Source: a bacterium
GTDB taxonomy: Bacteria; Patescibacteriota; Minisyncoccia; UBA6257; JACOXY01
Assembly: GCA_030680955.1 (NCBI GenBank)
Contig: JAUXUB010000016.1
Coordinates: 1 to 41,035 of the forward strand
Reading direction: 5' to 3'
Length of the DNA: 41,035 bases
Part shown: positions 1 through 40,129 of the stretch, piece by piece
Position numbering within the stretch: position 1 is the first letter of the stretch
Layout of the letters: each line of letters starts with the position of its first letter
Notes under the pieces: model-generated
The model's input: only the letters and a program-made list of their open reading frames with translations
Database searches by the model: none
Told to the model about the DNA's origin: nothing
Translations under genes and position numbers: made by a program

Positions 1-754
1 TGTATGATTTACCAGCGCCCGCCTTTGCAAATACTACTTGATTTGCATTTTCAAGCGAGAAGCGATCAAAAATAACTAAGCTGTTGTTGTGCATGTTTAC
101 GCCATACATTACGCCCCTGTCGGACGTAAGGTCGGGTGAGACAAACGGGAAGAGCGAGGATGCGGGGCCGGAGTTGAGAGGCGTGTGTGTTTCAAGTTTG
201 TCGGTGCAAAGCGGAAGCACAGAATCAAAGCCCTCCATCTGTTTAAAGAGCGCCGGCTTTATATAGACCAACTTACTCTGAAGTATTGATTCTATCTGCG
301 CTTCAAGTTTTGCAAGCGCGTCCAGACTTTGTCCATAGAGGGTTATATACACACCAACCTTGAAAAGTTTTTCTCTCGCCTGCATCAAAGAATCGCGCAA
401 ACTTTCAATATCCTGATATGCCGTTTCAAGCAACGGGTCGCGAACCATTCCTTTTGTTGATTTTTCATCCATTTCTGATTGGACCTGCGCAACCTTCTTC
501 TGCAAGTTGCGAAGCGCGCCCGCAGTTTCCATGGGATGTATGAAAATAGAGATATCCATCATCTCGGAAAGATTGATGATGGGAGAGAACCATCCCGACG
601 CGACAAAACGCGGATACGTAAAAATAAAAACAGTTTTTACGAAATAATCACCGAGTTTCAGATAATTTGGGCTTACCTCAAGACCTGAGGGCGCGACGAT
701 ATTTGGAAGGTCGCCAGGCGAGGGTTTGTAGGTTTGTGGAATCTGTATCTTCAT
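1..754 (-). CDS. VirB4/TrbE-like type IV secretion or conjugation ATPase, N-terminal part (3' end runs off the window)
   Basis: Absent from the ORF track because no stop lies inside the window. Manual minus-strand translation from ATG 754-752 gives MKIQIPQTYKPSPGDLPNIVAPSGLEVSPNYLKLGDYFVKTVFIFTYPRFVASGWFSPIIN...SLVIFDRFSLENANQVVFAKAGAGKSY. It is open for all 251 codons and ends in a Walker A (GAGKS) at the window edge. Visibly more G+C-rich than neighbouring DNA. Confidence 0.7.
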   Translation of the reverse strand, partial: MKIQIPQTYKPSPGDLPNIVAPSGLEVSPNYLKLGDYFVKTVFIFTYPRFVASGWFSPIINLSEMMDISIFIHPMETAGALRNLQKKVAQVQSEMDEKSTKGMVRDPLLETAYQDIESLRDSLMQAREKLFKVGVYITLYGQSLDALAKLEAQIESILQSKLVYIKPALFKQMEGFDSVLPLCTDKLETHTPLNSGPASSLFPFVSPDLTSDRGVMYGVNMHNNSLVIFDRFSLENANQVVFAKAGAGKSY

Positions 755-873
755 CCCGTTAGAGATAGGACGCAGACGCGGTAAGCATCTTGCATACTAT
801 ATTGTTATTTAATAATTCCGACTTTTTTATGTAAATCATATATTTTGTTATGCGTCCGCGATCTCTAACGGGA
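754..873. mobile_element. MITE-like element, CCCGTTAGA-TIR family, copy 1a
   Basis: TIRs are TCCCGTTAGAGATAGGACGCAGACGCG and GCGTCCGCGATCTCTAACGGGA, with an AT-rich core. Direct TTCA lies at 750-753 and 874-877. The first base is the A of the virB4-like ATG. Confidence 0.8.
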
Positions 874-877
874 TTCA

Positions 878-1100
878 TCCCGTTAGAGATAGTTCCCGTT
901 AGAAATTTTACCCACCGACACAATAGGTAAATAAATATACTTAACTTTTTTTAATATCTTAAACATATTTTTATATTTTCAAATTTCTAACGGGATAGAT
1001 CGTGTATGTCACTAACACGATATCTTTATATTTATTAATTATAATTTTTGTAATACTTAACCCGTTAAAAAATCCACAGCGACCGCGATCTCTAACGGGA
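878..1100. mobile_element. MITE-like element, same family, copy 1b, in tandem with 1a and carrying a nested element
   Basis: Starts TCCCGTTAGAGATAG and ends CGCGATCTCTAACGGGA. TTCA lies at 874-877 and 1101-1104. Confidence 0.75.
895..994. mobile_element. 100-bp inner element (short CCCGTTAGAAATTT TIRs) nested in copy 1b
   Basis: Ends are CCCGTTAGAAATTTTACCCACCGACA and CAAATTTCTAACGGG, with ATAG on both sides. It is homologous to 38572-38671. Confidence 0.65.
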
Positions 1101-2023: not shown

Positions 2024-4216
2024 GTGCTAAAGGAATTGCCATCGGAGTACAATCCAAAAGAATACGAAGAAAAGATGTACAAACTCTGGGAAGACAGTGG
2101 TTTTTTTAATCCAGACAATTTACCTAAAGTTTCAAAACAAAAAAACTTTAGTATCATAATGCCGCCACCTAATGCAAATGGAGCGCTCCATATGGGGCAT
2201 GCGCTTTTTGTAACTTTACAAGACATAATGATTCGATATAAAAGAATGCAGGGATATAAAACACTATGGCTTCCAGGGGCAGATCATGCCGGTTTTGAAA
2301 CTCAAGTTGTTTACCAAAAGAAACTAGAAAAAGAAGGACGGTCTTTTTGGGAAGTGCCAAAAGATAAACTTTACGAGGAAATTTTAGCTTTTACACTAGA
2401 GAATAAAAAACATATGGAAAGCCAGCTTAGGCAACTTGGTGCTTCCTGTGATTGGGGAAGAGAGAAATTCACGCTAGACGATGATATTAAAAAAATAGTT
2501 TATGAAACATTTAAAAAACTTTATGATGACAATTTAGTATATAAAGCGGAGCGCCCTGTAAATTGGTGTACCAGACACCAAACAACCTTATCTGATTTAG
2601 AAATAAAGCACGAGGAGCGAAAAGATAAATTATTTTATGTTCGTTACAAATTTGAAAATTCTGAAGATTATATAGTTGTTGCTACAACAAGACCAGAAAC
2701 AATTCCGGCAGATATTGCGATCGCTGTAAACCCAAAATCAAAATGGAATAAATATGTTGGTAAGAAAGTTTTAAATCCACTTACTCAAGAGGCAATCTTG
2801 ATTATTAGCGATAAGCGCGTAGAAATTTCATTCGGAACTGGTGCGCTTAAAATAACGCCATATCACGACGCGTTAGACTTTGAAATATATAAGGATCATC
2901 CCGAACTACCAGCTTCAAAAAGTGTTATTAATAAATTTGGAGCAATAGAAAATTCTGGGACTAAACTTGATGGATTAAAAATATTGCCAGCAAGAGAAAA
3001 GTCTATAGAAATTTTAAAATTTTCACTAGACAAAGAACCAGAAGATTATGTTCACCAAGTTAGTATTTGCTACAAGTGCAATACTTTAATTGAACCAAGA
3101 ATAATGAATCAGTGGTTTATTAAGACCACCGAAAAATCAAAAACTGGTAGTAAATCTCTAAGAGACCTCGCGATAGATGCAGTAAAGACAAAAAAAGTAA
3201 AATTTGTAACAAAGAAGTTTGAAAAGATTTTCATGCATTGGATGAAGAATCTACGAGATTGGAATATATCTAGGCAAATTGTATGGGGTATTAAAATTCC
3301 AGCTTGGTATCATGAACCAATATGCATACCAAAAAAAGGCCACGAAGGTGATGTGGTGAAATGTAATGAAATTATAATTTCGATGGATGAACCAATATGC
3401 GAGTTTTGCGATGCAAAATTTATACAAGAGTCTGATGTTTTTGATACTTGGTTTTCTTCAGGTCAATGGCCATTCGCATCACTAATGTCCACTCATAATA
3501 AAAATGATTTTAAAGATTTTTATCCAACTGATGTGATGGAAACTGGATGGGATATTTTATTCTTTTGGATAGCAAGAATGATAATGTTGGGAACATACAA
3601 AACAGGTAAAGTGCCTTTCAAAACTGTTTACCTTCATGGGTTGGTTCGCGACAAAGACCGACAAAAAATGTCTAAATCTAAGGGCAATGTTATTGACCCT
3701 CTTGGTGTAGCAGATATTTATGGTGCAGATGCCATAAGAATGTCGCTTGTTGTTGGAACTGCTCCAGGAAATGACCCCGTTATTTCTGAAGATAAAATAC
3801 GCGGTTATAGGAATTTTGCAACAAAAATTTGGAATGCTACAAGACTAATAACAATGCGTGGGTCAAGCACGATTCCAGAAAAACCTAATTATACGAACGA
3901 AGATAAAAAAACACTAAAAGAATTTGAAAAATTCAAAAAAACAGTTATTAAAGATATGGATGCCTATCGCTTTCACGAAGCTTCAAATAAAATTTATCAT
4001 TATTTCTGGCATACTTTTGCCGACAAAATTCTTGAATCATCAAAAGCGCGCTTGCAAGATGAAAATAAAAAAGTTAAAGAAACCGCAACGGCATTTCTCA
4101 TTAAACTCTTAACAGAGCAATTAAAGCTTCTACATCCATTTATGCCTTTTGTAACAGAAGCTATTTGGCAAGAATTATATGGTGGAAAGAAAATATTAAT
4201 GGTGGAAAAATTGTGA
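2024..4216 (+). CDS. valS: Valine--tRNA ligase
   Basis: Class I motifs are present: PPPNANGALHMGH (HIGH) and KMSKSKGN (KMSKS). A CP1 editing region and an anticodon-binding domain are also present. GTG start, TGA stop. At 730 aa there is no C-terminal coiled-coil extension. Confidence 0.95.
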   Translation: MLKELPSEYNPKEYEEKMYKLWEDSGFFNPDNLPKVSKQKNFSIIMPPPNANGALHMGHALFVTLQDIMIRYKRMQGYKTLWLPGADHAGFETQVVYQKKLEKEGRSFWEVPKDKLYEEILAFTLENKKHMESQLRQLGASCDWGREKFTLDDDIKKIVYETFKKLYDDNLVYKAERPVNWCTRHQTTLSDLEIKHEERKDKLFYVRYKFENSEDYIVVATTRPETIPADIAIAVNPKSKWNKYVGKKVLNPLTQEAILIISDKRVEISFGTGALKITPYHDALDFEIYKDHPELPASKSVINKFGAIENSGTKLDGLKILPAREKSIEILKFSLDKEPEDYVHQVSICYKCNTLIEPRIMNQWFIKTTEKSKTGSKSLRDLAIDAVKTKKVKFVTKKFEKIFMHWMKNLRDWNISRQIVWGIKIPAWYHEPICIPKKGHEGDVVKCNEIIISMDEPICEFCDAKFIQESDVFDTWFSSGQWPFASLMSTHNKNDFKDFYPTDVMETGWDILFFWIARMIMLGTYKTGKVPFKTVYLHGLVRDKDRQKMSKSKGNVIDPLGVADIYGADAIRMSLVVGTAPGNDPVISEDKIRGYRNFATKIWNATRLITMRGSSTIPEKPNYTNEDKKTLKEFEKFKKTVIKDMDAYRFHEASNKIYHYFWHTFADKILESSKARLQDENKKVKETATAFLIKLLTEQLKLLHPFMPFVTEAIWQELYGGKKILMVEKL

Positions 4217-4370
4217 TACCATCCTCAATTAACCACTTCCTATAAGATTTTTGTCATTGCGAGGGCGAAGCCCGCGGCAATCTAGAAAAAAACGGGATAA
4301 ATCTGGATTGCTTCGTCGTTCCTCCTCGCAAAGACGAAGTTAAAAGAATAGTGGTTAATTGGGGATGGTA
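4217..4370 (+). mobile_element. 154-bp multi-hairpin MITE, copy 3 (orientation A)
   Basis: It begins immediately after the valS TGA and has TA at both ends. Confidence 0.85.
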
Positions 4371-4374
4371 TAAT
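4366..4374 (+). promoter_or_regulatory. TGGTATAAT at the MITE copy 3 right junction, facing the prsW-like gene
   Basis: Same junction sequence as at 1960 and 12023. It lies about 210 nt upstream of ATG 4585. Confidence 0.35.
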
Positions 4375-4446
4375 TTTAAGTGAAAATATTATTACAAATA
4401 AAAATAAGGAGAATAGACCTTTTGCACAATTATATTCGTAACGAGA

Positions 4447-11800: not shown

Positions 11801-11873
11801 TGGTTCGATGGAGCTACTTCGACAAGCTCAGTATAAATCACCACAGGTGGGCTTTTTTGTTTTTTTAATATAA

Positions 11874-12027
11874 TACCATCCCCAATTAACCACTACTCTT
11901 TTAATCTCGTCTTTGCGAGGAGGAACGACGAAGCAATCCAGATTTATCCCATTATTTCCTGGATTGCCGCGGGCTTCGCCCTCGCAATGACAAAAGTCTT
12001 ATAGGAAGTGGTTAATTGAGGATGGTA
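11874..12027 (-). mobile_element. 154-bp multi-hairpin MITE, copy 4 (orientation B)
   Basis: Near-identical to copy 2, with TA at both ends. It lies between rpmB and tRNA-Pro. Confidence 0.85.
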
Positions 12028-12031
12028 TAAT
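12023..12031 (+). promoter_or_regulatory. TGGTATAAT at the MITE copy 4 right junction, 30 nt upstream of tRNA-Pro(GGG)
   Basis: GGATGG|TA|TAATAAAG. The spacing is compatible with a short tRNA leader. Confidence 0.5.
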
Positions 12032-16576: not shown

Positions 16577-16723
16577 TTAAAAATGAGGTGGACGACTATT
16601 TAAAGTCTTATGCGCGAGGGGCGCGGTAGATGGATTTAGAATCCATTAAATTTTAGCGGTATTAAGTTATCAAAGAATCCTTAATAGTATACACCAAAGT
16701 CGCAATATTAAAAATGCAGAACT

Positions 16724-16856
16724 GTGGATAACCGGGTAGTGAAAATACGAGCGTTTTTTAAGGTTTTTGAACGAAAAATTTGGAATATCTAAGTTAAAGA
16801 GAATGTTCTCGAGTTAGTATTTGTTTCAAAACTCGTATTTCTACTACCCGGATAAC
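16724..16856. mobile_element. MITE-like element, GGATAACCGGGTAGT family, copy 1
   Basis: Ends are GTGGATAACCGGGTAGTGAAAATACGAGCG and CAAAACTCGTATTTCTACTACCCGGATAAC. The 20-nt TIR core matches at 18 of 20 positions. It lies 9 bp after the trpD stop. Confidence 0.65.
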
Positions 16857-16864
16857 TTTTCAAC

Positions 16865-19482: not shown

Positions 19483-20361
19483 TTAAATTTTTACAACCAA
19501 GCTCTTTAGTTTATTTTCAATCATTTGAATTGGATAAAGATCTTTGGCATAAATTTCAATTAGTCTTATTCCAGATTTCCTACAGAGCATTCTCTTTCTT
19601 TTAATAGCTCGGTCATAGCGCGGACTATCTTTAGCTAGACCAAAATATTCTATAAAAGTTTTTTCACTAATACTCCAATCTGCACGATGTCCTGTTTTTG
19701 GATATGGAGCTTCTCTTTTGTGAGAAATATTATTTTTAGTCAACCAATCATCAATAATCGCTTCGGAAATAGAATCACAATTATGACCATCACTAGCAAC
19801 TGTATTTGATCGTTTGTACATGCGCTGACTATGTGAACGGTGGGGCATAAGACCAGCTGCAAGGATGGCTTTATTCCAAGAACCAAATTCCCTAATGCAC
19901 GCATCTACAATAAACATAGCCTCACGTTTTGCTGGAGTGCGCCCCAATGCTTTAGACATAAATTGTAATTTATTGATAAGCGCTTGTGGTGTATGAATTT
20001 TTCGCACAGACCATAGACACTTCCTGCTACAATATTTTGTACTGCCTTTTATTTTAACCCCACAATTAGCACAAATCTTAAAACCCGGCCCGCGTTTTGG
20101 GAACTTTTGATCGTTGATATGAGCGGCACAACTTCTTGAACAATAACTATGGTCTACTTTAAGAATTTGATTCGGGCAACGATAAAATCTGTTTTCACAT
20201 TCTGCATTACTGCAATGCAATTCCAAGCTCGTAACTTTTGACTTAGTCATGCATTGTTTGGAACAGTATTGTTTCCATTTAAATTTCTTTGCTTCATTTA
20301 CCCGCCCTTGCGGCCGTAAAAATATTTTTTTACACAAGGCGCATTTTACTTGAATATTCAT
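19483..20361 (-). CDS. Zinc-ribbon repeat protein with homing-endonuclease-associated repeat and C-terminal PD-(D/E)xK-like nuclease-type domain
   Basis: Three YCSxxC/CxxC zinc-ribbon units. LGRTPAKREAMFIVDACIREFGSWNKAILAAGL resembles the HNH-associated repeat. The tail ...SEAIIDDWL...ADWSI..KTFIEYFGL...GIRLIEI resembles Vsr/restriction-endonuclease-like folds. Motif-level call only. Confidence 0.45.
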   Translation of the reverse strand: MNIQVKCALCKKIFLRPQGRVNEAKKFKWKQYCSKQCMTKSKVTSLELHCSNAECENRFYRCPNQILKVDHSYCSRSCAAHINDQKFPKRGPGFKICANCGVKIKGSTKYCSRKCLWSVRKIHTPQALINKLQFMSKALGRTPAKREAMFIVDACIREFGSWNKAILAAGLMPHRSHSQRMYKRSNTVASDGHNCDSISEAIIDDWLTKNNISHKREAPYPKTGHRADWSISEKTFIEYFGLAKDSPRYDRAIKRKRMLCRKSGIRLIEIYAKDLYPIQMIENKLKSLVVKI

Positions 20362-21336: not shown

Positions 21337-22896
21337 TCACTTCACGTAATGCTTTTGTTTCATTTTTTGTTCTTCCCCTGCTTCAAATTCATCTTTAGTG
21401 CTTTTTGCTTTTTTAGCAAGCTGATGCAATTCTTTATCAGATAATTTATTTAATATTTTAATTCTTAATTCTAGATTCTCTATCGTGTTTCTTAAAGGAT
21501 CTTCTATTACTTCTTCTAATAATATAGAAAGTATCGCCCCAATTTTTGGACCTGGTGGAATATCTAGCAATCGCATCAAATCATCTCCTTTAACTAAAAG
21601 CATTTTGGGGCTTATTGGATCTCGCTTTACCTTCTCTATCATAAAAAGAAGATGGCGAAGTTTATATGGTACAGCCTTAGGAACTCCAGAACCAATTCTA
21701 TCCGCTTCACGAACTTTTATCAAATCGTCAATATTTTCTGGTCCAACTCTTGCTATAAAACGGCGTACACCAGATGGTGTTACTTCGCCAACGTTATAAT
21801 AAAATAAATGATACCTTACTAGATGAGCCACCTGCTCGATTAGGTCTTTGTTAAAATGAAGTCGATCCATTATTTTTACAGCCATTTTCCCTCCGATTAT
21901 ATCGTGTCCATAAAATGTAGAATCTGGACCATTGCCACGCTTACTCTTTGGTTTTCCAACATCATGCAAAAGTGATGCTAGACGAATGTGAAGAGGATAA
22001 TTTTTAGAAACTGCGTAATCAAGAGCTCTTAAATTATGTTCCCAAACAGAATATATATGATGTTTATTTTGTCCCACGTCTATACCTTCTCTAAGTTCTG
22101 GCATAATGTGTCGAAGTAATCCATAATCTTCCAGTATTTGAACTCCATCTTTAGCGCGACTAGACAATATTATTTTTTGAAATTCATCTCTAATTCGTTC
22201 TTTAGCAATAGCCTCAAGCAACCCACTGTGATGTAAAATAGCAGCTCCAGTTTCGCCGTCAATTTTAAAGCCGAGTTCGGATGCAAAACGTATCGCACGC
22301 ATCATTCGAAGCGCATCTTCGGTAAATCGTTCCTCGGGCTTACCCACTGTTTTAATGAGTTTAGCTTTTAAATCGCCCTGACCTCCATATGGATCCACCA
22401 ATTGCAGATTTTTTAAATCAATCTTTGTTTCGTTTTCAGTACTTAAGCCATCAACAATAAAATCTTTAGTATCAGATGACCAGCCAAGAGCTAGTGAATT
22501 AATCGTGAAATCGCGACGCGACAAATCTTCTTCAACTGTCTTTGCAAAAGAAATTGAATCTGGATGTCGCTTATCGGTATATTTGCCCTCTTTTCTAAAA
22601 GTAGTAATCTCTACTATTTTAGCTTTCAACTCCGACGCTGCGGTCGGAGTCCGGACCTCTTCGAGCGTCGGGATTTTCACCCCAACAGTTCCAAATTGAT
22701 TCTCATAAACACTATCAGGAAATAATTTTTGAACTTCATCTGGCTTAGCATTTGTCGTTATATCCCAGTCTTTTGGTTCGCGACCAAGTAAAATATCTCG
22801 TACGCAACCACCTACAAGATACGCCTCAAAATTAGCTTTTCTCAAAACCCTTAAAATTTTATTAACTTCAATTGGTATATGAATTTCTTTAGACAT
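21337..22896 (-). CDS. cca: CCA-adding tRNA nucleotidyltransferase with HD domain
   Basis: LVGGCVRDILLGREPKDWDITT, RRDFTINSLA, an HD motif (LLHDVGKP) and a C-terminal extension. Confidence 0.85.
   Translation of the reverse strand: MSKEIHIPIEVNKILRVLRKANFEAYLVGGCVRDILLGREPKDWDITTNAKPDEVQKLFPDSVYENQFGTVGVKIPTLEEVRTPTAASELKAKIVEITTFRKEGKYTDKRHPDSISFAKTVEEDLSRRDFTINSLALGWSSDTKDFIVDGLSTENETKIDLKNLQLVDPYGGQGDLKAKLIKTVGKPEERFTEDALRMMRAIRFASELGFKIDGETGAAILHHSGLLEAIAKERIRDEFQKIILSSRAKDGVQILEDYGLLRHIMPELREGIDVGQNKHHIYSVWEHNLRALDYAVSKNYPLHIRLASLLHDVGKPKSKRGNGPDSTFYGHDIIGGKMAVKIMDRLHFNKDLIEQVAHLVRYHLFYYNVGEVTPSGVRRFIARVGPENIDDLIKVREADRIGSGVPKAVPYKLRHLLFMIEKVKRDPISPKMLLVKGDDLMRLLDIPPGPKIGAILSILLEEVIEDPLRNTIENLELRIKILNKLSDKELHQLAKKAKSTKDEFEAGEEQKMKQKHYVK
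22630..22672 (-). repeat. G+C-rich palindromic module inserted in frame in cca
   Basis: The coding strand reads CCCGACGCTCGAAGAGGTCCGGACTCCGACCGCAGCGTCGGAG, encoding PTLEEVRTPTAASE. The 7-bp-stem hairpin CTCCGAC-CGCAGC-GTCGGAG is the same module as in uvrB. Confidence 0.6.
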
Positions 22897-26249: not shown

Positions 26250-26267
26250 TTTCCACTATTTCAACAT

Positions 26268-27017
26268 TATTTACGTCATCGCAAGACGTAAATATTATTC
26301 CAACACTAACTTTTTAATACTATCCAAATCTAAATTTTGAAGCCAAGATTTTATACTTTTTTTATATCCATCCGGTCCATCAAAAAATTCAGATAATAAC
26401 TCTCTTTGGGTAACTGAGGGGAAATTTTTCTCCCCAGAGTAATCACGATGACTCGACCAGCGATAGCTATCTAAAAATTCAATTGCTTTCCTATAATTCG
26501 TCAATTTGCGATCTCGCCATTCCTTAAATTTAAAATCTAATGGATTGAAATGAATATAGTATGGAAGGTGAATAAAATGTGCGTCGTTCTTAACCGGAAC
26601 AGATTTAAATCTCCCCTCAAACAAAGTTCCGACTCTTTCGTATTTATTGTTAAAATACTTGGCATATCCCATATTAACTTTTTTCATAAACAATGAGATA
26701 CTACCCTCGTGACGAGGAGAAATAAGAAGGTGATAGTGATTATCCATCAAACAAAAAACGTGTAGATCAACCAATAACTTTCTTGGCTTCTTTTCATTGG
26801 GTTCAAATTTACGTCTTGCGATGACGTTAAATTGATAATAAGTGCTATTCGCTGGTTCTTGATTATTAAATTCAAATAAGTCGTGAATGAAGCGGTAGCG
26901 ATCCTCATCATCCATAAATATTTTTCTTTTATCTACTCCTCTACTTAAAACGTGATATATTTCACTCATAATGTAATATATAATATCCCAATATTTACGT
27001 CATCGCAAGACGTTAAT
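26268..27017 (-). mobile_element. IS200/RAYT-like unit: Y1 (HUH) transposase gene bracketed by two copies of one hairpin
   Basis: The hairpin TATTTACGTC-ATCGCAA-GACGTAAATA at 26268-26294 is repeated in the same orientation at 26993-27017 with one stem mismatch. The surrounding roughly 35 bp are also repeated. Confidence 0.65.
26295..26969 (-). CDS. REP-associated tyrosine transposase (RAYT) / IS200-like Y1 HUH transposase
   Basis: HUH motif MDNHYHLL, then YIHFNP and RWSSH, as in COG1943/RAYT proteins. 224 aa. Confidence 0.75.
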   Translation of the reverse strand: MSEIYHVLSRGVDKRKIFMDDEDRYRFIHDLFEFNNQEPANSTYYQFNVIARRKFEPNEKKPRKLLVDLHVFCLMDNHYHLLISPRHEGSISLFMKKVNMGYAKYFNNKYERVGTLFEGRFKSVPVKNDAHFIHLPYYIHFNPLDFKFKEWRDRKLTNYRKAIEFLDSYRWSSHRDYSGEKNFPSVTQRELLSEFFDGPDGYKKSIKSWLQNLDLDSIKKLVLE

Positions 27018-27018
27018 A

Positions 27019-29556
27019 TTATTTTAATATTTTTCTAAGATATTCACCTGTTGCACTTCCTGCACATCGTGCAACATCTTCTGGAGTTCCTTGCGCAATA
27101 ATCTTTCCGCCCTTAACTCCACCTTCTGGGCCTAAGTCAATTACCCAATCGGCACATTTTATAACATCTAAATTATGCTCAATAACAATTATTGAATTTC
27201 CCTTTTCAACAAGTTTTTGCAAAACATCCATTAAGTTTTGGATGTCGGCAAAGTGAAGGCCTGTAGTTGGCTCGTCTAACAAATATAGTGTCCGTCTTGT
27301 ATCGGGCTTTCCTAATTCAGAAGAAAGTTTAATTCTTTGAGCCTCGCCACCAGATAAGGTCGTCGCAGATTGTCCTAATTGCAAATATTCCAAACCAACA
27401 TCACCCATTATTTTTAAACGCTCATAAAGCCAAGGAATATCCCTAAAAAATACTATAGCTTCTTCTACTGTCATCTTAAGTATGTCGTGTATATTTTTAT
27501 CCTTGTATTCCACCGCTAGCGTTTCACGATCAAAACGTTTGCCTTTGCAAACATCACACTCAACATAAACTGTTGGTAAAAAGTGCATTTCAATTGCTAT
27601 AGTTCCGTGTCCTTCACAGTTCTCACAACGCCCTCCTGGAACATTAAAACTAAATCGCCCAGGTTTATAACCTCGAACTCGCGCATCTTCGGTCGAAGCA
27701 AAAAGTTCCCTGATATAAGTCCATGCACCTACATACGTTGCCGGATTAGATCTTGGAGTTCTTCCTATGGCAGATTGGTCAATATTAATTATTCTATTAA
27801 AATACTCCAAACCCAATATTGAGTTAACTCCATCTACTTTGAAGCTTGATCTATTTAGTTTATTAGAAACATATTTATAAATAACGTCATAAACCAAAGA
27901 ACTTTTACCAGAACCCGAAACTCCAGTAACAGCCACTAACCTACGAAGTGGAATGTCTACATTTATATTTTGAAGATTGTTAGTTGAGGCACCGCGAATT
28001 TTTAGATAATCATGTTGCTTCGTGATACTTCTTCGCTTCTCTGGAATAGGAATAGTAACTTTTCCACGCAAATAATCTAATGTTAGCGATTTATACTTAT
28101 CTTTATCCTTAATTATTTGAGGCATAGGACCTTCTGCTACTATATGTCCGCCGTGGACTCCAGCACCTGGTCCGATATCAACAAGATAATCTGCGGTTCT
28201 AATAGTATCTTCGTCGTGCTCAACAATAATTATAGTATTACCAATATCTCGTAAATTTTTTAGTGTTTCAATAAGTTTTGCATTATCTCTCTGGTGCAAC
28301 CCAATTGTCGGCTCGTCTAATATATATAAAGTTCCTACAAGCCGTGAGCCAATTTGTGAGGCAAGCCGAATACGCTGGGCTTCTCCACCTGACAAGGTTC
28401 CAGCCATTCTGTTTAGTGTTAAATATTCTAATCCTACGTCAAACATAAATTGAAGACGACTTCTAACCTCACGAAGCGGCACTTCGGCAATACTTAATTT
28501 AGTCTCATCAAGTGATTTTTGAACATCGGTTATCCATTGTTTTGATTCACTAATAGACATTGCCACAACTCCTGCAATATTTTTCCCCTCAACTAAAACA
28601 CTTAAAGCTTCGCGTCTTAGACGCTTTCCATCGCATACTGGACAAACTTTCTCAGAAAAAAGAGATTCTGTCCCGAGTCCGTTACAAGCCGTACACGCTC
28701 CATAGGGACTATTGAACGAGAATAATCTTGGCTCTATTTCTAAAAATGCAAAACCATCTCGGGCGCAAGTAAATTTTGCTGAAAATGAATGCTCATCATT
28801 GCCGTCTGCAATTACGGTAACAACATCATTTCCATATTTAAGAGCTGACTCAATTGCCTCTGCAAGACGAAGTCGATTATCTTTTCCATCCTTAATAGAA
28901 AAATCTAGCATTTGAGGGATTCGATCTACTAACAATTCTATTGTATGAGCCTTATAACGAGAAAGTTCGATTCTATTTCTAAGTGATTTAAATTCTCCAT
29001 CTATTCTAATCTCAGAAAAACCTGCATTTAAAAAATTATAAAGCATCTGATAATATTCCCCTTTTCTACCACGTACTACAGGTGCCAAAATTAAAATATT
29101 TTTGTCTGTTTTTGCTTTTTTAAACAATCGTATGACAGCATCCACTATCTCTTCTTTTGTAAGTTTCTTTATCTCGTGACCACAATCTGGACAGTGCGGT
29201 ACACCTGAGCGCGCAAAGAGCACACGAAGATAATCATAGATTTCTGTAATGGTTGCAACTGTTGAACGAGGATTATGTGAATGACTTTTCTGGTCAATTG
29301 AAATGGCTGGCGAAAGACCTTCAATCTCATCCACGTCTGGCTTATCTAATTTACCTAAAAACTGACGCGCATAAGCAGAAAGAGACTCAATGTAACGTCT
29401 TTGCCCTTCCGCAAAAATGGTATCAAACGCTAAGCTAGACTTACCCGAACCGGAAAGCCCAGTAAATACTATCATTTTATTTCGAGGTAATCTCAAAGAT
29501 ATATTTTTAAGATTATGCTCTCTTGCTCCTTTTATTGTAATAAAGTCTTGTGCCAT
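27019..29556 (-). CDS. uvrA: Excinuclease ABC subunit A (845 aa, lacks the insertion domain)
   Basis: Two ABC modules (GLSGSGKSS, GVSGSGKSS, two LSGGEAQR) and zinc modules. Only 9 residues separate CTACNGLG and CPVCDGKRL. Confidence 0.95.
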   Translation of the reverse strand: MAQDFITIKGAREHNLKNISLRLPRNKMIVFTGLSGSGKSSLAFDTIFAEGQRRYIESLSAYARQFLGKLDKPDVDEIEGLSPAISIDQKSHSHNPRSTVATITEIYDYLRVLFARSGVPHCPDCGHEIKKLTKEEIVDAVIRLFKKAKTDKNILILAPVVRGRKGEYYQMLYNFLNAGFSEIRIDGEFKSLRNRIELSRYKAHTIELLVDRIPQMLDFSIKDGKDNRLRLAEAIESALKYGNDVVTVIADGNDEHSFSAKFTCARDGFAFLEIEPRLFSFNSPYGACTACNGLGTESLFSEKVCPVCDGKRLRREALSVLVEGKNIAGVVAMSISESKQWITDVQKSLDETKLSIAEVPLREVRSRLQFMFDVGLEYLTLNRMAGTLSGGEAQRIRLASQIGSRLVGTLYILDEPTIGLHQRDNAKLIETLKNLRDIGNTIIIVEHDEDTIRTADYLVDIGPGAGVHGGHIVAEGPMPQIIKDKDKYKSLTLDYLRGKVTIPIPEKRRSITKQHDYLKIRGASTNNLQNINVDIPLRRLVAVTGVSGSGKSSLVYDVIYKYVSNKLNRSSFKVDGVNSILGLEYFNRIINIDQSAIGRTPRSNPATYVGAWTYIRELFASTEDARVRGYKPGRFSFNVPGGRCENCEGHGTIAIEMHFLPTVYVECDVCKGKRFDRETLAVEYKDKNIHDILKMTVEEAIVFFRDIPWLYERLKIMGDVGLEYLQLGQSATTLSGGEAQRIKLSSELGKPDTRRTLYLLDEPTTGLHFADIQNLMDVLQKLVEKGNSIIVIEHNLDVIKCADWVIDLGPEGGVKGGKIIAQGTPEDVARCAGSATGEYLRKILK

Positions 29557-34100: not shown

Positions 34101-34511
34101 TTATACTTTGGGAGTTTTATTATCCAGGTTTTGAACTGTAATAACAATTTCTCTTTCTCTTGGCCCTGCCATTTCAACCAAAACAACTCTTTGCCATGCT
34201 CCCAAATAAAGCTTGCTATCTTTTATTGGAACAACAAGTGAAGACCCAATTAGCGCAGTAATAATATGGTCTGGAGTGTGTTCTGGATTATGAGGATGAC
34301 GATATGCAAGCTTTGGAACTATTTCCTTAAAAGCATCCATCATATCCTGGTCTGTGCCTGGGTCAAGATCTGCGGTGGTAATTGCCGCGGTAGTGTGAAG
34401 CGAAAATACGGAAACTAATCCTTCATCTATTCCCTTTACCTCTAAATCTACAATATTTGTAATATCAATTACTTCTTTATCTTTTTTTGTTGAAATTTTA
34501 ATTGTCTTCAT
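34101..34511 (-). CDS. yjbQ: YjbQ/UPF0047 family protein (secondary thiamine-phosphate synthase-like)
   Basis: GLVSVFSLHTTAAITTADLDPGTDQDM...HPHNPEHTPDHI...LGAWQRVVLVE is typical of YjbQ. The start is moved to ATG 34511, because the 9 extra codons in the track lie in the repeat. Confidence 0.8.
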   Translation of the reverse strand: MKTIKISTKKDKEVIDITNIVDLEVKGIDEGLVSVFSLHTTAAITTADLDPGTDQDMMDAFKEIVPKLAYRHPHNPEHTPDHIITALIGSSLVVPIKDSKLYLGAWQRVVLVEMAGPREREIVITVQNLDNKTPKV

Positions 34512-34628
34512 CCCGTTAGAAATAGGACGCGGACGCAAAAAGCGTTATGCATACTATTTAGTTAATTATAAATATTAATTATTCTATGCTTTACATACTC
34601 TATAACTCGTCCGCTATTTCTAACGGGA
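34511..34628. mobile_element. MITE-like element, CCCGTTAGA-TIR family, simple copy
   Basis: TCCCGTTAGAAATAGGACGCGGACGC ... GTCCGCTATTTCTAACGGGA. TTCA lies at 34507-34510 and 34629-34632. Confidence 0.8.
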
Positions 34629-36067: not shown

Positions 36068-36124
36068 ATTTATTTTAATATTAATTGAAATTATTATACG
36101 AGTATTTATTTTCTAATACAAGGT

Positions 36125-36256
36125 GTGGATAACCAGGTAGTGAAAATGCGAGCGTATTTATAATTACAGCAATAGAACATTTACGATATTAACGCTTTTG
36201 TCTATCATTTTAAATCAAATGTATTTCAAAACTCGCATTTCTACTACCTGGATAAG
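36125..36256. mobile_element. MITE-like element, GGATAACCGGGTAGT family, copy 2
   Basis: GTGGATAACCAGGTAGTGAAAATGCGAGCG ... CAAAACTCGCATTTCTACTACCTGGATAAG. The ends match copy 1 but the core is unrelated. Confidence 0.65.
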
Positions 36257-36287
36257 TTGTTCGGGTAATAAGAAGATAAAAAAATGG

Positions 36288-37467: not shown

Positions 37468-38553
37468 TTATACAATTATCCTCTCAATAAGTGGATTTAT
37501 TCTTGTCAAAAACTCATAGTAAGATGTTCTTGCTTTAAAGCTTGCGTCTATTATATCAATTTCAACTTTATCCATTATTTTGCAGGCAATATCGGTTACG
37601 TCCACCATAACTACATCCATAGTTACTCTCCCTAATATCTTTGCTCTCTCATTATTAATTATAACATCGCCAACGCCAGAGAGGGCCCAAGGAAGACCAT
37701 GCCAATAACCAATTGGTAAAATTCCAATTTTGGTTTTTCGATTTAATCTTTCGGTTAAATCATAACTCACATAACTTCCCTTAGGCGCTTCTTTAATTTC
37801 ACTTATGATAGTTTTCCAGCGTAAAACTGGTTTAAGTTTTATTTGTGGAAATTGTATTTTTATTTCTTTTGAAGGAGCGTGCCCATAAAGCCCCATTCCA
37901 ATACGAACCATATCAAAATGATATTTCGGATTAAGTATAGTAGCGGACGATGCCGCGGCATGCTTAATAAGTTTTGTAAAACCTTTTTTTGCAAAAAGTG
38001 CTATAGCTTTCTGAAATTTTTGGAACTGCATTTCGGTATAAGTTGGATAATTAATATCTTTTGCGGAAGAGAAATGCGTATAAATACCTTCCACGCATGT
38101 GACATGTAACATGTTACGTGTTACTAGTTTTATCACTTGTGGTATTTCATTAATAAAGAAGCCCTGTCGATTCATCCCTGTATCTATTTTAATATGAATT
38201 TTTGGTTTATTTTTTGACTTTATCCAATCTTTTAATGCATTAATGTTTGATATTGTAATGGCACAATTATTTTTGATGACGACATCATAATTTGAAGACA
38301 GAGTCATTCCCAAAACTAAAATTGGTTTTTTTATATTATGCTTACGCAACGTTTCTGCTTCAAAGACAGAGTCTACACAAAAATAATCCACACCACTACT
38401 TACTATTACAGCATAATCATATAAACCATGACCATAGGCGTTACTTTTAACAACCGAGGCAAGTTTAACCTTAGGCCCAATGAGACCTCTAAAAACGCCA
38501 ATATTATGGATTGCAGCTTTTTGATTTATTTCAATCCATGTCTTTAATTTCAT
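37468..38553 (-). CDS. alr: Alanine racemase
   Basis: MKLKTWIEINQKAAIHNI...VVKSNAYGHG (PLP lysine motif)...YGHAPS. The start is moved to ATG 38553, because the 54 extra codons in the track are read-through of the repeat. Confidence 0.85.
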   Translation of the reverse strand: MKLKTWIEINQKAAIHNIGVFRGLIGPKVKLASVVKSNAYGHGLYDYAVIVSSGVDYFCVDSVFEAETLRKHNIKKPILVLGMTLSSNYDVVIKNNCAITISNINALKDWIKSKNKPKIHIKIDTGMNRQGFFINEIPQVIKLVTRNMLHVTCVEGIYTHFSSAKDINYPTYTEMQFQKFQKAIALFAKKGFTKLIKHAAASSATILNPKYHFDMVRIGMGLYGHAPSKEIKIQFPQIKLKPVLRWKTIISEIKEAPKGSYVSYDLTERLNRKTKIGILPIGYWHGLPWALSGVGDVIINNERAKILGRVTMDVVMVDVTDIACKIMDKVEIDIIDASFKARTSYYEFLTRINPLIERIIV

Positions 38554-38780
38554 CCCGTTAGAAATAGGACGCGTTAGAAATTTTACCAACCGACAGATTT
38601 GGTAAATATAATGTTTTATTGATTTGAAATATAATTTCCATAAAATATTAGTTTTTAAATTTCTAAACGGGATAGGACGCGGACATAAAACCATATTCGC
38701 TGACCCGATGACCAAGACAGGGGCAATAATATTTGGGTCATCAGGTCAGGTGGATTACGCGTCCGCTATTTCTAACGGGA
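38553..38780. mobile_element. MITE-like element, CCCGTTAGA-TIR family, composite copy
   Basis: TCCCGTTAGAAATAGGACGC ... GCGTCCGCTATTTCTAACGGGA. TTCA lies at 38549-38552 and 38781-38784. Confidence 0.8.
38572..38671. mobile_element. 100-bp inner element nested in the composite copy
   Basis: CGTTAGAAATTTTACCAACCGACA ... AAATTTCTAAACGGG, with ATAGGACGC on both sides. Homolog of 895-994. Confidence 0.6.
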
Positions 38781-38782
38781 TT

Positions 38783-38837
38783 CATAAAATCACTAGATCA
38801 TTAAATCAAAGTGTTCTAGTGTTCTAGTGATTTTATG
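38783..38837. repeat. About 55-bp palindromic motif, copy B, overlapping the serS 3' end
   Basis: CATAAAATCACTAGATCATTAAATCAAAGTGTTCTAGTGTTCTAGTGATTTTATG. The 11-bp arms are AAAATCACTAG / CTAGTGATTTT. It contains an 8-bp tandem duplication. Confidence 0.6.
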
Positions 38838-40129
38838 ACCTTCTTGCCCAAATATTTCTGCAAAACTTTAGGAACAAGAATTTTGCCATTGTTATTTTGA
38901 TAATTTTCAATAATTGCTATCAACATTCTACCTATTGCAAAAACTGTACCATTTAACATATGAACATATTCGGCACCTTGATCTGAATCTGCTCCTTCTT
39001 TTCTATATTTAATATTTAATCTACGCGACTGAAAATCTGTTGTATTAGATGTTGAATGAGTTTCACGATATTCACCTAGTCCATTTTTCTGACCAGGCAT
39101 CCAAGCCTCGATATCAAATTTTGAAGCGGCTGGATCTCCGAGGTCTCCAGTGCAAATATTTAAAACATGATATGGCAATTTTAGTAATTGCATCAAATGT
39201 TCTTCAATCGCAAGTAGAAGTTGATGTTCCACTTCTGATTTATCTGGTGTTGTAATTGAAAACATTTCTACTTTATCAAATTGGTGTACTCGCAGTATTC
39301 CCTTGGTATCTTTTCCATACGAACCAGCCTCACGACGAAAACAAGAAGAGAAAGAAACATAACGCCTAGGTAGTTCAATTTCTGCAAAAGTTTCACCTGC
39401 ATGCATTGGACCAATAGACTGTTCTGAAGTACCAACTAGATAAAGATCATCTTGAATGCTGTAAATTTCTTCTCCGCTACGATCCATATAACCCATAGCT
39501 GCCATCATTTCGCTCTTGATTAATACTGGAGGCACAACTGGAATAAATGGCGTTGAATCTACCATTAGTTTCTTATTACGTATAATATTCTTAATTTTTT
39601 TCTCATCTCCTAAAGTCTGAAATGCAAGTTGAACCAAAGCAAATTCTAGTAATGCGGCATCGCCAATCAAATAGCCGAACCTGCTACCAGATACTTTTGA
39701 AGCTCGTTCGATATTTATTATATTTAATTCCTCTCCTAATGAAAGATAATCCTTTGGGATTGGAAAGGCTACTTTTTTCTTGCCAACTTCACGAAGCACA
39801 ATATTGTCAGTTTCATCTTTTCCAATAGGAACTGAAGAAAGGGGCAAATTTGGTATTTGTCTTAAAATTGCATTTCTTTTTTCATCAAGTTCTTTAAGTG
39901 TTCCTTCAAGTGCTTTTATCTCATCTTTTAAGAGTTTAGCTTTAGTAATATCACGTGCTTCTCCTGCTTTTTTCTGATCTGACCTCAAATCTTCAACATT
40001 TTTTGTAACGGATCGCCAATTAGTATCTATAGCTAAAAACTCATCTACCAGACTAGGATTTATGTTTTTTGATGAAATGCCTTTTTTTATTAAATCCGGA
40101 TTTTCACGGATATATTTAATGTCTAACAT
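38816..40129 (-). CDS. serS: Serine--tRNA ligase
   Basis: N-terminal coiled-coil arm (MLDIKYIRENPD...) and class II motifs (FRREAGSYGKDTKGILRVHQF, GDLG, GTVFAIGRMLIAIIENYQ). Confidence 0.95.
   Translation of the reverse strand: MLDIKYIRENPDLIKKGISSKNINPSLVDEFLAIDTNWRSVTKNVEDLRSDQKKAGEARDITKAKLLKDEIKALEGTLKELDEKRNAILRQIPNLPLSSVPIGKDETDNIVLREVGKKKVAFPIPKDYLSLGEELNIINIERASKVSGSRFGYLIGDAALLEFALVQLAFQTLGDEKKIKNIIRNKKLMVDSTPFIPVVPPVLIKSEMMAAMGYMDRSGEEIYSIQDDLYLVGTSEQSIGPMHAGETFAEIELPRRYVSFSSCFRREAGSYGKDTKGILRVHQFDKVEMFSITTPDKSEVEHQLLLAIEEHLMQLLKLPYHVLNICTGDLGDPAASKFDIEAWMPGQKNGLGEYRETHSTSNTTDFQSRRLNIKYRKEGADSDQGAEYVHMLNGTVFAIGRMLIAIIENYQNNNGKILVPKVLQKYLGKKVIKSLEH

Follow-up and report, generated by a model that had tools for sequence, protein, structure and literature searches.

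The alanine racemase gene alr in the DNA analysed here (positions 1 to 41,035 of contig JAUXUB010000016.1, assembly GCA_030680955.1, from a bacterium of the Patescibacteriota; the whole stretch of 41,035 nucleotides is called the window) is preceded by a 228-bp insert. We put the probability at roughly 0.7 for the explanation set out below, in which this insert consists of two nested, decayed copies, non-autonomous and internally deleted, of a family of small elements of Patescibacteria. The family is found at hundreds of loci in Patescibacteria with a common layout, always the same way round and, with few exceptions, at a start codon, where the element stands between two copies of the four bases that follow the A of the ATG. 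Its full-length form of ~280 bp has a single open reading frame (ORF) for a predicted nuclease of the GIY-YIG superfamily. The family is apparently undescribed, no description having been found in the searched literature, the coverage of which was incomplete.

The working coordinates were read directly from the window sequence. The insert runs from T38553 to A38780 and is flanked on either side by TTCA (38549-38552 and 38781-38784), so that the 228-bp element with family ends described in a first-pass annotation of this DNA is borne out, as is its view that two members of one inverted-repeat family form a composite at the alr ATG, the insertion having duplicated TTCA. On the plus strand the gene-proximal TTCA is followed by T-CCCGTTAGAAATAG, and the far end reads CTATTTCTAACGGG-A, with the A at 38780, before the second TTCA. 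The terminal inverted repeat, TCCCGTTAGAAATAG and its exact complement, is perfect over 15/15 bp (38553-38567 and 38766-38780). The alr gene (37468-38553, 361 aa) lies on the minus strand, where the gene-proximal duplication reads TGAA and gives, together with T38553, the working start ATGAA. The A of the alr ATG (38553..38551) is accordingly the complement of T38553, the first base of the element, as had been noticed earlier. The N-terminus MKLKTWIEINQ is normal for an alanine racemase, because residue 5 aligns with residue 9 of the solved alanine racemases, and this alignment also upholds the earlier judgement. The gene-distal duplication with its adjoining A (38781-38785, minus strand) is the original alr ATGAA, which now opens a dead-end ORF of 14 codons, MNPVRNSGRVIHLT. 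The upstream gene (38816-40129, minus strand; called serS in the first-pass annotation, the basis being the ORF only) has its stop codon at 38816-38818, leaving 30 nt to the upstream ATGAA copy and 262 nt to the alr ATG now in use. The proposed stretching of this junction from about 30 to about 260 nt was hence right, with the upstream ATGAA at 38785..38781 and not at 38786-38782.

On the gene strand the outer element begins with T-CCCGTTAGAAAT-AGC-GGACGC-G (38758-38780) and ends with GCGTCC-T-ATTTCTAACGGG-A (38553-38572), which adjoins the alr ATG. These two stretches carry the 5' strands of helix 1 and helix 2 and the 3' strands of helix 2 and helix 1, respectively, the helices being defined on the full-length relatives described below. 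In the predicted RNA fold the whole composite is closed by these conserved helices as one stem (z = -6.9). The hairpin at 38700-38749 (minus strand), earlier regarded as cargo, belongs to the outer element and has the 14-bp stem ascribed to it (38700-38713 and 38736-38749), with one C-A mismatch on the plus strand that is a G-U pair in minus-strand RNA. The arm motif has 10 matches in the window against 0.33 expected, an excess that chance does not explain. A scan of 38400-38900 against Rfam with E up to 10 gave only chance matches to microRNA-like hairpins, outside the element.

Two further features were seen at the serS-alr junction. A perfect 15-bp inverted repeat, CATAAAATCACTAGA and TCTAGTGATTTTATG (38783-38797 and 38823-38837), pairs the last codons of serS with the region of the original alr ATG and is not conserved in the relative L121, and next to it the 8-mer TTCTAGTG stands in tandem (38814-38829), with the serS stop codon inside one copy. 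In this region Rfam gave nothing beyond chance matches to microRNA-like hairpins.

The inner element, 99 bp on the minus strand (38573-38671), points the same way as the outer one. Its arms read CCCGTTTAGAAATTT ... AAATTTCTAAC, a separate hairpin (TTTACCAA/TTGGTAAA) stands beside its 3' arm, and it is bracketed by two copies of the 9-bp direct repeat ATAGGACGC (38564-38572 and, on the minus strand, 38672-38680). The bracketing had been recognised correctly, with the element given as 38572-38671. According to the family rule the inner junction should read ...CTAACGGG-A-CCTA, and it actually reads ...CTAAC-GCGT-CCTA, the inner element ending in GCGT where GGGA is expected. Under this rule the 9-bp repeat would be a 4-bp duplication of CCTA plus two substitutions, which lengthen the repeat to 9 bp and restore GCGTCC, the 3' strand of helix 2, beside the intact 3' strand of helix 1. 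Such substitutions could be read as repair of the helix after insertion, through selection or conversion.

The second composite of the window (878-1100, minus strand, inner core 895-994) is nested in the same manner, and its inner-element flanks, TCTA and ACTA, fit the 4-bp rule with one mismatch. In both window composites the distance from the inner 3' end to the outer CTAACGGG is exactly 8 nt, and it is the same in L069, an unrelated genome of another lineage with a different inner element of 49 bp. This agreement makes the arm position, the sharing of which by the two window loci the first-pass annotation had noticed, a recurrent insertion site. Nesting at other positions is seen in L011 and L141. 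The same annotation took the inner sequence to be identical at the two window loci (100 bp) and considered that the composite might move as a unit. The common position in the arm stands and would be accounted for if both composites had arisen once and been copied together, but we regard this as very improbable. The outer bodies have no similarity beyond their ends, the two inner elements share 89% identity over the gene-proximal 36-37 nt, and besides the arms the remainder is only weakly similar AT-rich sequence; moreover, the element nested at that position in L069 is a different one. A metagenome scan for the inner subfamily, made as a census of solo and nested copies, gave three matches only: one truncated copy, one degenerate solo copy, located 8 nt from the pilin-like gene that it precedes, and one that is probably due to chance.

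The family was followed beyond the window with CATCCCGTTAGARATMG against one genome per species. This gave at least 120 loci with 111 inverted pairs and size classes near 80, 115-120 and 275-278 bp. Among the matches listed, nearly all are from Patescibacteria, where they are spread over many lineages, and the small number in other phyla is compatible with chance; labels of metagenome-assembled genomes such as 'Candidatus Saccharibacteria' were accepted as given in the public records. Viral contigs gave 0 matches. The layout on the gene strand is constant, A-TGNN-T-CCCGTTAGARAT ... ATYTCTAACGGG-A-TGNN, and NN varies between loci (AA, AG, GA, CG, GG, TA and others), which shows that the constant target is the start codon and not TTCA. 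For the matches listed, the ATGNN duplication is perfect in 76/88 copies, an ORF of at least 60 aa follows the element in 82/88, and 107/113 could be given an orientation with respect to the gene, all of them with the same internal asymmetry, the hairpin being beside the gene-proximal arm. A perfect 4-bp duplication is present in 134 family copies, with a preference for A at the third and fourth positions (82% and 86%), as the TGA formed by the downstream duplication is the stop codon of the nuclease.

Within the 41-kb window there are five family copies, all of them before minus-strand genes and flanked by TTCA, and each time the ATG of the gene is rebuilt from the terminal base of the element and the duplication. 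A simple copy of 118 bp (34511-34628, minus strand) is located at the ATG of a gene for a 136-aa protein labelled YjbQ-like, and over the 21 terminal bp at each end it is identical to the outer alr element, which places the two in one subfamily by sequence. Another simple copy, of 120 bp (754-873, minus strand), lies at the ATG of the leftmost gene, with the 878-1100 composite in tandem upstream of it; it keeps a read-through mini-ORF of 39 codons that ends at a TAA 7 nt before the gene ATG. The window has 78 intergenic TGAA/TTCA sites and 5 genes starting with ATGAA, 3/5 of which are occupied by an element. In tandem arrays, here (754-1100) and in L004 (5898-6278) and L114, neighbouring copies share one ATGAAT, so the upstream ATG of an existing copy can be targeted again.

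The closest public relative, contig CAYHMC010000008.1, has an Alr that is 79% identical and an ortholog of the 136-aa protein that is 88% identical. Its site before the latter gene (L209) is empty and reads ...AAAAAAATT-ATGAAAATAG, where the window has ATGAAT, a 116-bp core and ATGAAGACA, so the 34511-34628 copy differs in presence or absence between related genomes. A near-identical counterpart (118 bp) of the 754-873 copy is found before rplI in L098, the window copy being situated before a different gene, and the mini-ORF peptides of the two differ at 6/39 residues. The empty orthologous site and the near-identical copies at different genes together show that the family is mobile. At alr the same relative carries a simple copy (L121, 2884-3004) with a TACG arm variant, CCCGTACGAAAT/ATTTCGTACGGG, which is also found in the full-length copies L156, L159, L174 and L204. 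In the L121 element the upstream ATGAAT has become ATTCAT, by which the inverted repeat is extended to 17 bp and the upstream ATG removed. Two more distant alr orthologs (L122, L123) are without the element, and serS and alr overlap in one of them. The window's own Alr and SerS proteins were searched for and are not on record.

In the full-length form of ~280 bp a single ORF of 95 aa is enclosed by inverted ends of 13 bp, T-CCCGTTAGAGAT ... ATCTCTAACGGG-A, and the alignment of the 275-278-bp class varies at every third position. The protein matches Pfam PF01541 (GIY-YIG) with E = 1.2e-17 and 64.4 bits (cut-off 22.6). Among solved structures its sequence is closest to UPF0213 BH0048 and, with a weak match, to SLX1, and the predicted fold (pLDDT, a predicted-confidence score, of 88) has UPF0213 BH0048 and SLX1 as top solved matches with probability 1.00, I-TevI and UvrC ranking lower. 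In 35 sequences Y12, Y14, Y25, G27, R33, H39, E59, E71 and N85 are invariant or at least 90% conserved, in agreement with the two tyrosine motifs and the Arg, Glu and Asn of the superfamily; their presumed catalytic roles are those of the counterparts in I-TevI and UvrC. By sequence and predicted fold the 95-aa protein is accordingly a predicted nuclease of the GIY-YIG superfamily, of the UPF0213/SLX1 type.

A protein-based search yielded no fewer than 579 loci, and the protein clusters number more than 3320, with annotations limited to 'GIY-YIG nuclease family protein', 'putative endonuclease' or 'excinuclease ABC subunit C'. From these a sample of 80 loci was chosen by the protein and is hence unbiased for the flanks. 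Both ends were present in 72/80, and 60 directly abut an ATG or GTG; among copies with T..A termini 59/63 abut ATG. The perfect duplications in this sample were TGAA (38), TGAG (2), TGGA (2) and one each of TTAA, TGTA, TGAC and TTTA. The target genes, judged by eye from N-terminal sequences, are what we take to be diverse housekeeping genes: CTP synthase, SecA, DnaJ, topoisomerase I (three times), ribosome recycling factor and SMC, and also ArgS, MurD, PGK and GreA.

In the coding layout of this form, the ORF is open from the upstream host ATG to the TGA of the duplication in 23/26 distinct copies with a 278-bp core. The nuclease N-terminus, M-x-P-V-R-D, is encoded by the duplication and the arm, and its TGA stop, which comes from the downstream duplication, overlaps the regenerated host ATG (A-TGA). 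As read from the sequences, the element therefore brings no start or stop codon itself and borrows both. Diversity at codon positions 1, 2 and 3 of the 278-bp-core copies is 0.26, 0.20 and 0.51, which indicates purifying selection on the 95-aa protein. Full-length relatives were also found outside Patescibacteria, in records labelled Clostridia, Ratteibacteria, Desulfobacteraceae, Planctomycetes and Syntrophales (L152, L153, L177, L184, L185 and L189); in L185 and L189 the element stands between a GGAG site and the ATG. In the literature, PMC12455944 comes close in that it lists GIY-YIG proteins among genes transferred from Patescibacteria.

Two helices are conserved in every form of the element and are supported by covariation. 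Helix 1 consists of the two paired element ends, and helix 2 comprises 15 bp inside the ORF, its 3' strand being one base away from the 3' strand of helix 1. In the full-length elements 97% of the cells of both helices are paired, with 11 pairs changed on both sides, a result matched by 0/500 shuffles, and variant ends covary as well (GAGAC/GTCTC, TACGAAAT/ATTTCGTA and GAGCC/GGCTC). Helix 2 was found by a strict 7-nt test in 38/87 short copies, with 0.5 expected. Judged from sequence, the short copies, including all those of the window, are internal deletions that retain both helices; some have lost the loop of helix 2, which leaves a local hairpin, and others the stretch between the 5' strands. 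Read-through mini-ORFs are kept in 27/72 short copies, compared with 9.0 +/- 2.7 in shuffles (maximum 19 in 2000) and with 11, 3 and 7 in reverse-complemented and frame-shifted controls, and they end at a TAA 7 nt before the host ATG or at an overlapping TGA, or continue in frame into the gene. A conserved mini-ORF of ~38 aa, MNPVRNRGR...NRIGFGR...ASASYF, was observed in seven copies of 115-118 bp (L010, L029, L032, L053, L081, L106 and L117) from genomes the copies of which otherwise differ; the cause could be the peptide, an RNA or DNA motif, or recent spread.

The target sites have features in common. A -10-like hexamer (TANNNT) ends 5-10 nt before the target ATG at 49/116 sites, against 10/116 in a control window, and a Shine-Dalgarno core is present at 4/116. 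Many element-free genes of the window have the same geometry, their ATG being preceded at 6-9 nt by a TATAAT-like box and lacking a Shine-Dalgarno sequence (for example 21337-22896, 19483-20361 and 38816-40129), and clear GGAGG sites are found in a minority of window genes. These observations suggest that many of the targets are probably leaderless genes, in which the start codon doubles as transcription start; other targets follow closely behind an upstream gene.

For alr itself, the alignments with homologs and with orthologs favour a start at the regenerated ATG at 38553. The frame is open for 54 codons upstream of this ATG (38554-38715, minus strand), through both nested elements, a feature that the relative does not share; a stop is avoided by one additional T in the inner 5' arm (CCCGTTTAG), so that the ORF finder reports an alr of 415 aa. 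The ORF that opens at the upstream ATG has only 14 codons and ends 190 nt short of the alr ATG, and a coupling route as proposed below for intact copies therefore cannot apply as such at this locus. Candidates for alr expression are an internal promoter, scanning or reinitiation after serS or after the short ORF, and an in-frame ATG 47 codons upstream. A simple scan found no sigma-70-type promoter on the gene strand inside the composite, and the extended -10-like motif TGGTAAAAT in the inner element is a visual lead only.

Taken together, the data suggest the following explanation. Insertion takes place in the four bases that follow the A of a start codon (A|TGNN, in most cases TGAA), which are thereby duplicated. 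The upstream copy of the host ATG becomes the start codon of the nuclease, and the last A of the element with the downstream TGA provides both the UGA stop of the nuclease and the regenerated host AUG, in an AUGA overlap. From this geometry, the host gene could be translated by coupled termination and reinitiation after ribosomes have read through the element. The two helices presumably are signals in cis for movement, expression or both. A nuclease of structure-specific type may mobilise full-length and short copies alike; that the 95-aa protein has this role is suggested by its being the only coding form and by its resemblance to structure-specific nucleases. At alr an old, decayed copy has received a second member in its 3' arm, at a position targeted independently elsewhere, and the 9-bp repeat restores a continuous 3' strand of helix 2 and helix 1 beside the alr ATG. 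The preference for start codons appears to be partly mechanistic, beyond the effects of selection and retention. A far-reaching form of this explanation, which we hold only tentatively and with some doubt, is that the family represents a new class of autonomous prokaryotic transposon of ~280 bp, moved by a bare structure-specific GIY-YIG nuclease that recognises two helices, mechanistically aimed at start codons from which it borrows start and stop, and leaving essential host genes dependent on translation through the element. One conceivable basis for such aiming is that in these largely leaderless genomes, with start codon and transcription start coinciding, the melted promoter complex might offer a junction of single- and double-stranded DNA at A|TG. 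We know of no smaller autonomous prokaryotic transposon.

Several points weigh against this explanation. The closest relative is occupied at alr and hence offers no empty site for this locus, and tblastn found no GIY-YIG ORF in the window, which is thus without a full-length copy. The movement of the elements by the GIY-YIG protein is argued from its being the sole coding form found, and the coupling of host genes from ORF geometry and statistics; related copies are non-independent, so that the statistical significance is overstated, with the direction being clear. The mini-ORF of the 34511-34628 copy stops 53 nt before the ATG, and as that of the alr copy also ends early, coupling would not be the sole route of host expression. 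Start-codon copies may also have been retained by selection while others decayed. In line with such a bias, the termini of the relatives in other phyla are C..G, their duplications include TTTA and GAAA, and they are located near start codons and not at them, which suggests that part of the start-codon bias comes from selection.

Elements moved by DDE transposases typically show inverted ends with a 4-bp duplication, as seen here, and the family could be an ordinary miniature inverted-repeat element mobilised in trans by such an enzyme, the GIY-YIG gene being a passenger or the copies at gene starts being survivors. The lack of a coding copy in the window agrees with this, selection and retention alone could generate the start-codon bias, and, as in other miniature elements, there are inverted ends, a duplication, several non-coding copies per genome and, for the 34511-34628 copy, presence/absence variation. 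However, an autonomous partner encoding a DDE enzyme was not found: no larger bounded element with the same ends was seen in more than 200 loci, where long-range pairs of ends proved to be separate elements, and the only coding form with these ends is the ~280-bp GIY-YIG element, present at no fewer than 579 loci and under purifying selection. An ORF built from the ends and the duplication is moreover hard to reconcile with a passenger, and we consider this explanation unlikely.

We regard it as slightly less likely still that the family spreads by homing, in which the nuclease would cut ATGA-type starts and repair would copy the donor by way of ATGAA microhomology, the apparent duplication then being microhomology and not a filled-in staggered cut. 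GIY-YIG is a classic fold of homing endonucleases, all window copies share ATGAA, and TGAA makes up 38/46 perfect duplications, all of which would fit; but the protein has no DNA-binding domain beyond its 95-aa catalytic core, five bases are a very short homology, conserved covarying ends are not needed for homing, and the duplications differ within single genomes (TGAG and TGAA in L004, TGGA and TGCG in L036). A homing endonuclease gene has one long cognate site at a conserved locus and spreads through repair from a homologous donor, and here dozens of unrelated targets share ATGNN only, so the elements fall outside that definition on account of their many targets, the lack of a DNA-binding domain, the inverted ends and the duplications. 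A fixed, non-mobile regulatory leader, that is, a conserved RNA motif in the 5' untranslated region of many genes, would explain why the 19 conserved nt adjoin the ATG, why the helices covary and why the folding is stable. As the sole explanation it is contradicted by the empty site in the relative and the flanking duplications, and near-identical copies at different genes, tandem and nested copies, the protein encoded by the full-length form and the absence of any Rfam match speak against it as well, leaving it with hardly any probability, although the mobile element favoured here may have a regulatory side effect.

Other identities were considered and set aside. No known RNA family or small ribozyme was matched in Rfam, where the whole window (Rfam 15) matches tRNAs only. 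A group I-like intron, for which the flank ending in U and the element ending in G were considered, does not agree with copies of 80-120 nt, which are too small, with the duplications or with the lack of a model match. A tRNA-like minihelix for RNase P or RNase Z was suggested by the 12-bp helix with its adjoining A, but cleavage behind that A would destroy the AUG. A leaderless promoter at the 3' end (TATCTC-N7-ATG) has a hexamer without the final T and no -35 element, and was left as unlikely. An IS200/IS605-type palindrome-associated element is ruled out by the inverted ends and the duplication, and an integron attC site by its misfitting core motif and by the targets, which are housekeeping genes.

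The family can be compared with several known systems. The Correia elements of Neisseria are likewise short, non-coding, multi-copy sequences with inverted ends and a short duplication, which fold into long stems and are co-transcribed with neighbouring genes; the present family has no sequence relation to them and differs in the insertion at start codons, the single orientation, the duplication that rebuilds the start codon and the 280-bp GIY-YIG partner, which takes the place of an insertion sequence with a DDE transposase. The free-standing GIY-YIG homing genes (the Seg proteins of T4 and relatives of I-TevI) are also selfish GIY-YIG genes between other genes and often translationally linked to them, but they have an added DNA-binding domain, one long cognate site, no inverted ends and no duplication, in contrast to the bare 95-aa core, the dozens of target genes, the conserved inverted ends and the 4-bp duplication found here. 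The closest relatives by sequence and predicted fold are the UPF0213/YhbQ and SLX1 proteins, of which UPF0213 is of the same size, and SLX1 cuts branched DNA, which fits an element with ends that form helices. To our knowledge, these proteins have not been described as mobile. As in translationally coupled genes with AUGA overlaps, the UGA of the nuclease overlaps the host AUG in 23/26 full-length copies, the difference being that start and stop of the upstream ORF are here created by insertion from the host start codon. The Rickettsia palindromic elements are likewise small, palindromic and mobile and are tolerated in expressed regions by keeping the frame, but they insert in frame within coding sequence and join the protein, whereas the elements described here precede the first codon as a separate upstream ORF. 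IS200/IS605-derived elements share the small size, the end hairpins and the sequence-specific insertion, and differ in that they have no inverted ends or duplication and insert 3' of a fixed tetra- or pentanucleotide.

If this explanation holds in full, GIY-YIG nucleases would be a new enzyme class of prokaryotic transposons beside DDE, HUH, serine, tyrosine, DEDD and Cas1, and the lower size limit of an autonomous mobile element would be a new one. It would also represent a new route by which a selfish element becomes harmless, with the start codon duplicated, the upstream ORF coupled, and start and stop borrowed; alr has been retained although its junction with serS grew from 30 to 262 nt of structured sequence. 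The thousands of ORFs annotated as 'GIY-YIG nuclease family' in Patescibacteria (the more than 3320 protein clusters) would be mobile elements, many gene starts would be preceded by inserts into which gene callers may extend the genes, as in the 415-aa alr ORF, and a natural system for leaderless initiation and reinitiation would be at hand in an uncultured lineage.

The window contains further repeats. A second, unrelated family of ~165 bp with inverted ends of ~20 bp, ATACCATCCYCAATTAACC, has four copies (1188-1349, 4214-4375, 1790-1968 and 11853-12031) in both orientations with 91-94% identity, each flanked by a TATAAT-like sequence. A third repeat of ~135 bp is present twice (16723-16858 and 36124-36258) and has long inverted ends beginning TGTGGATAACC, which contains the complement of the DnaA-box-like TTATCCACA. 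Finally, a palindromic hairpin of 35 nt, TTTACGTCATCGCAAGACGTAAA, occurs in two copies (26265-26299 and 26989-27023) that flank the gene at 26295-26969.

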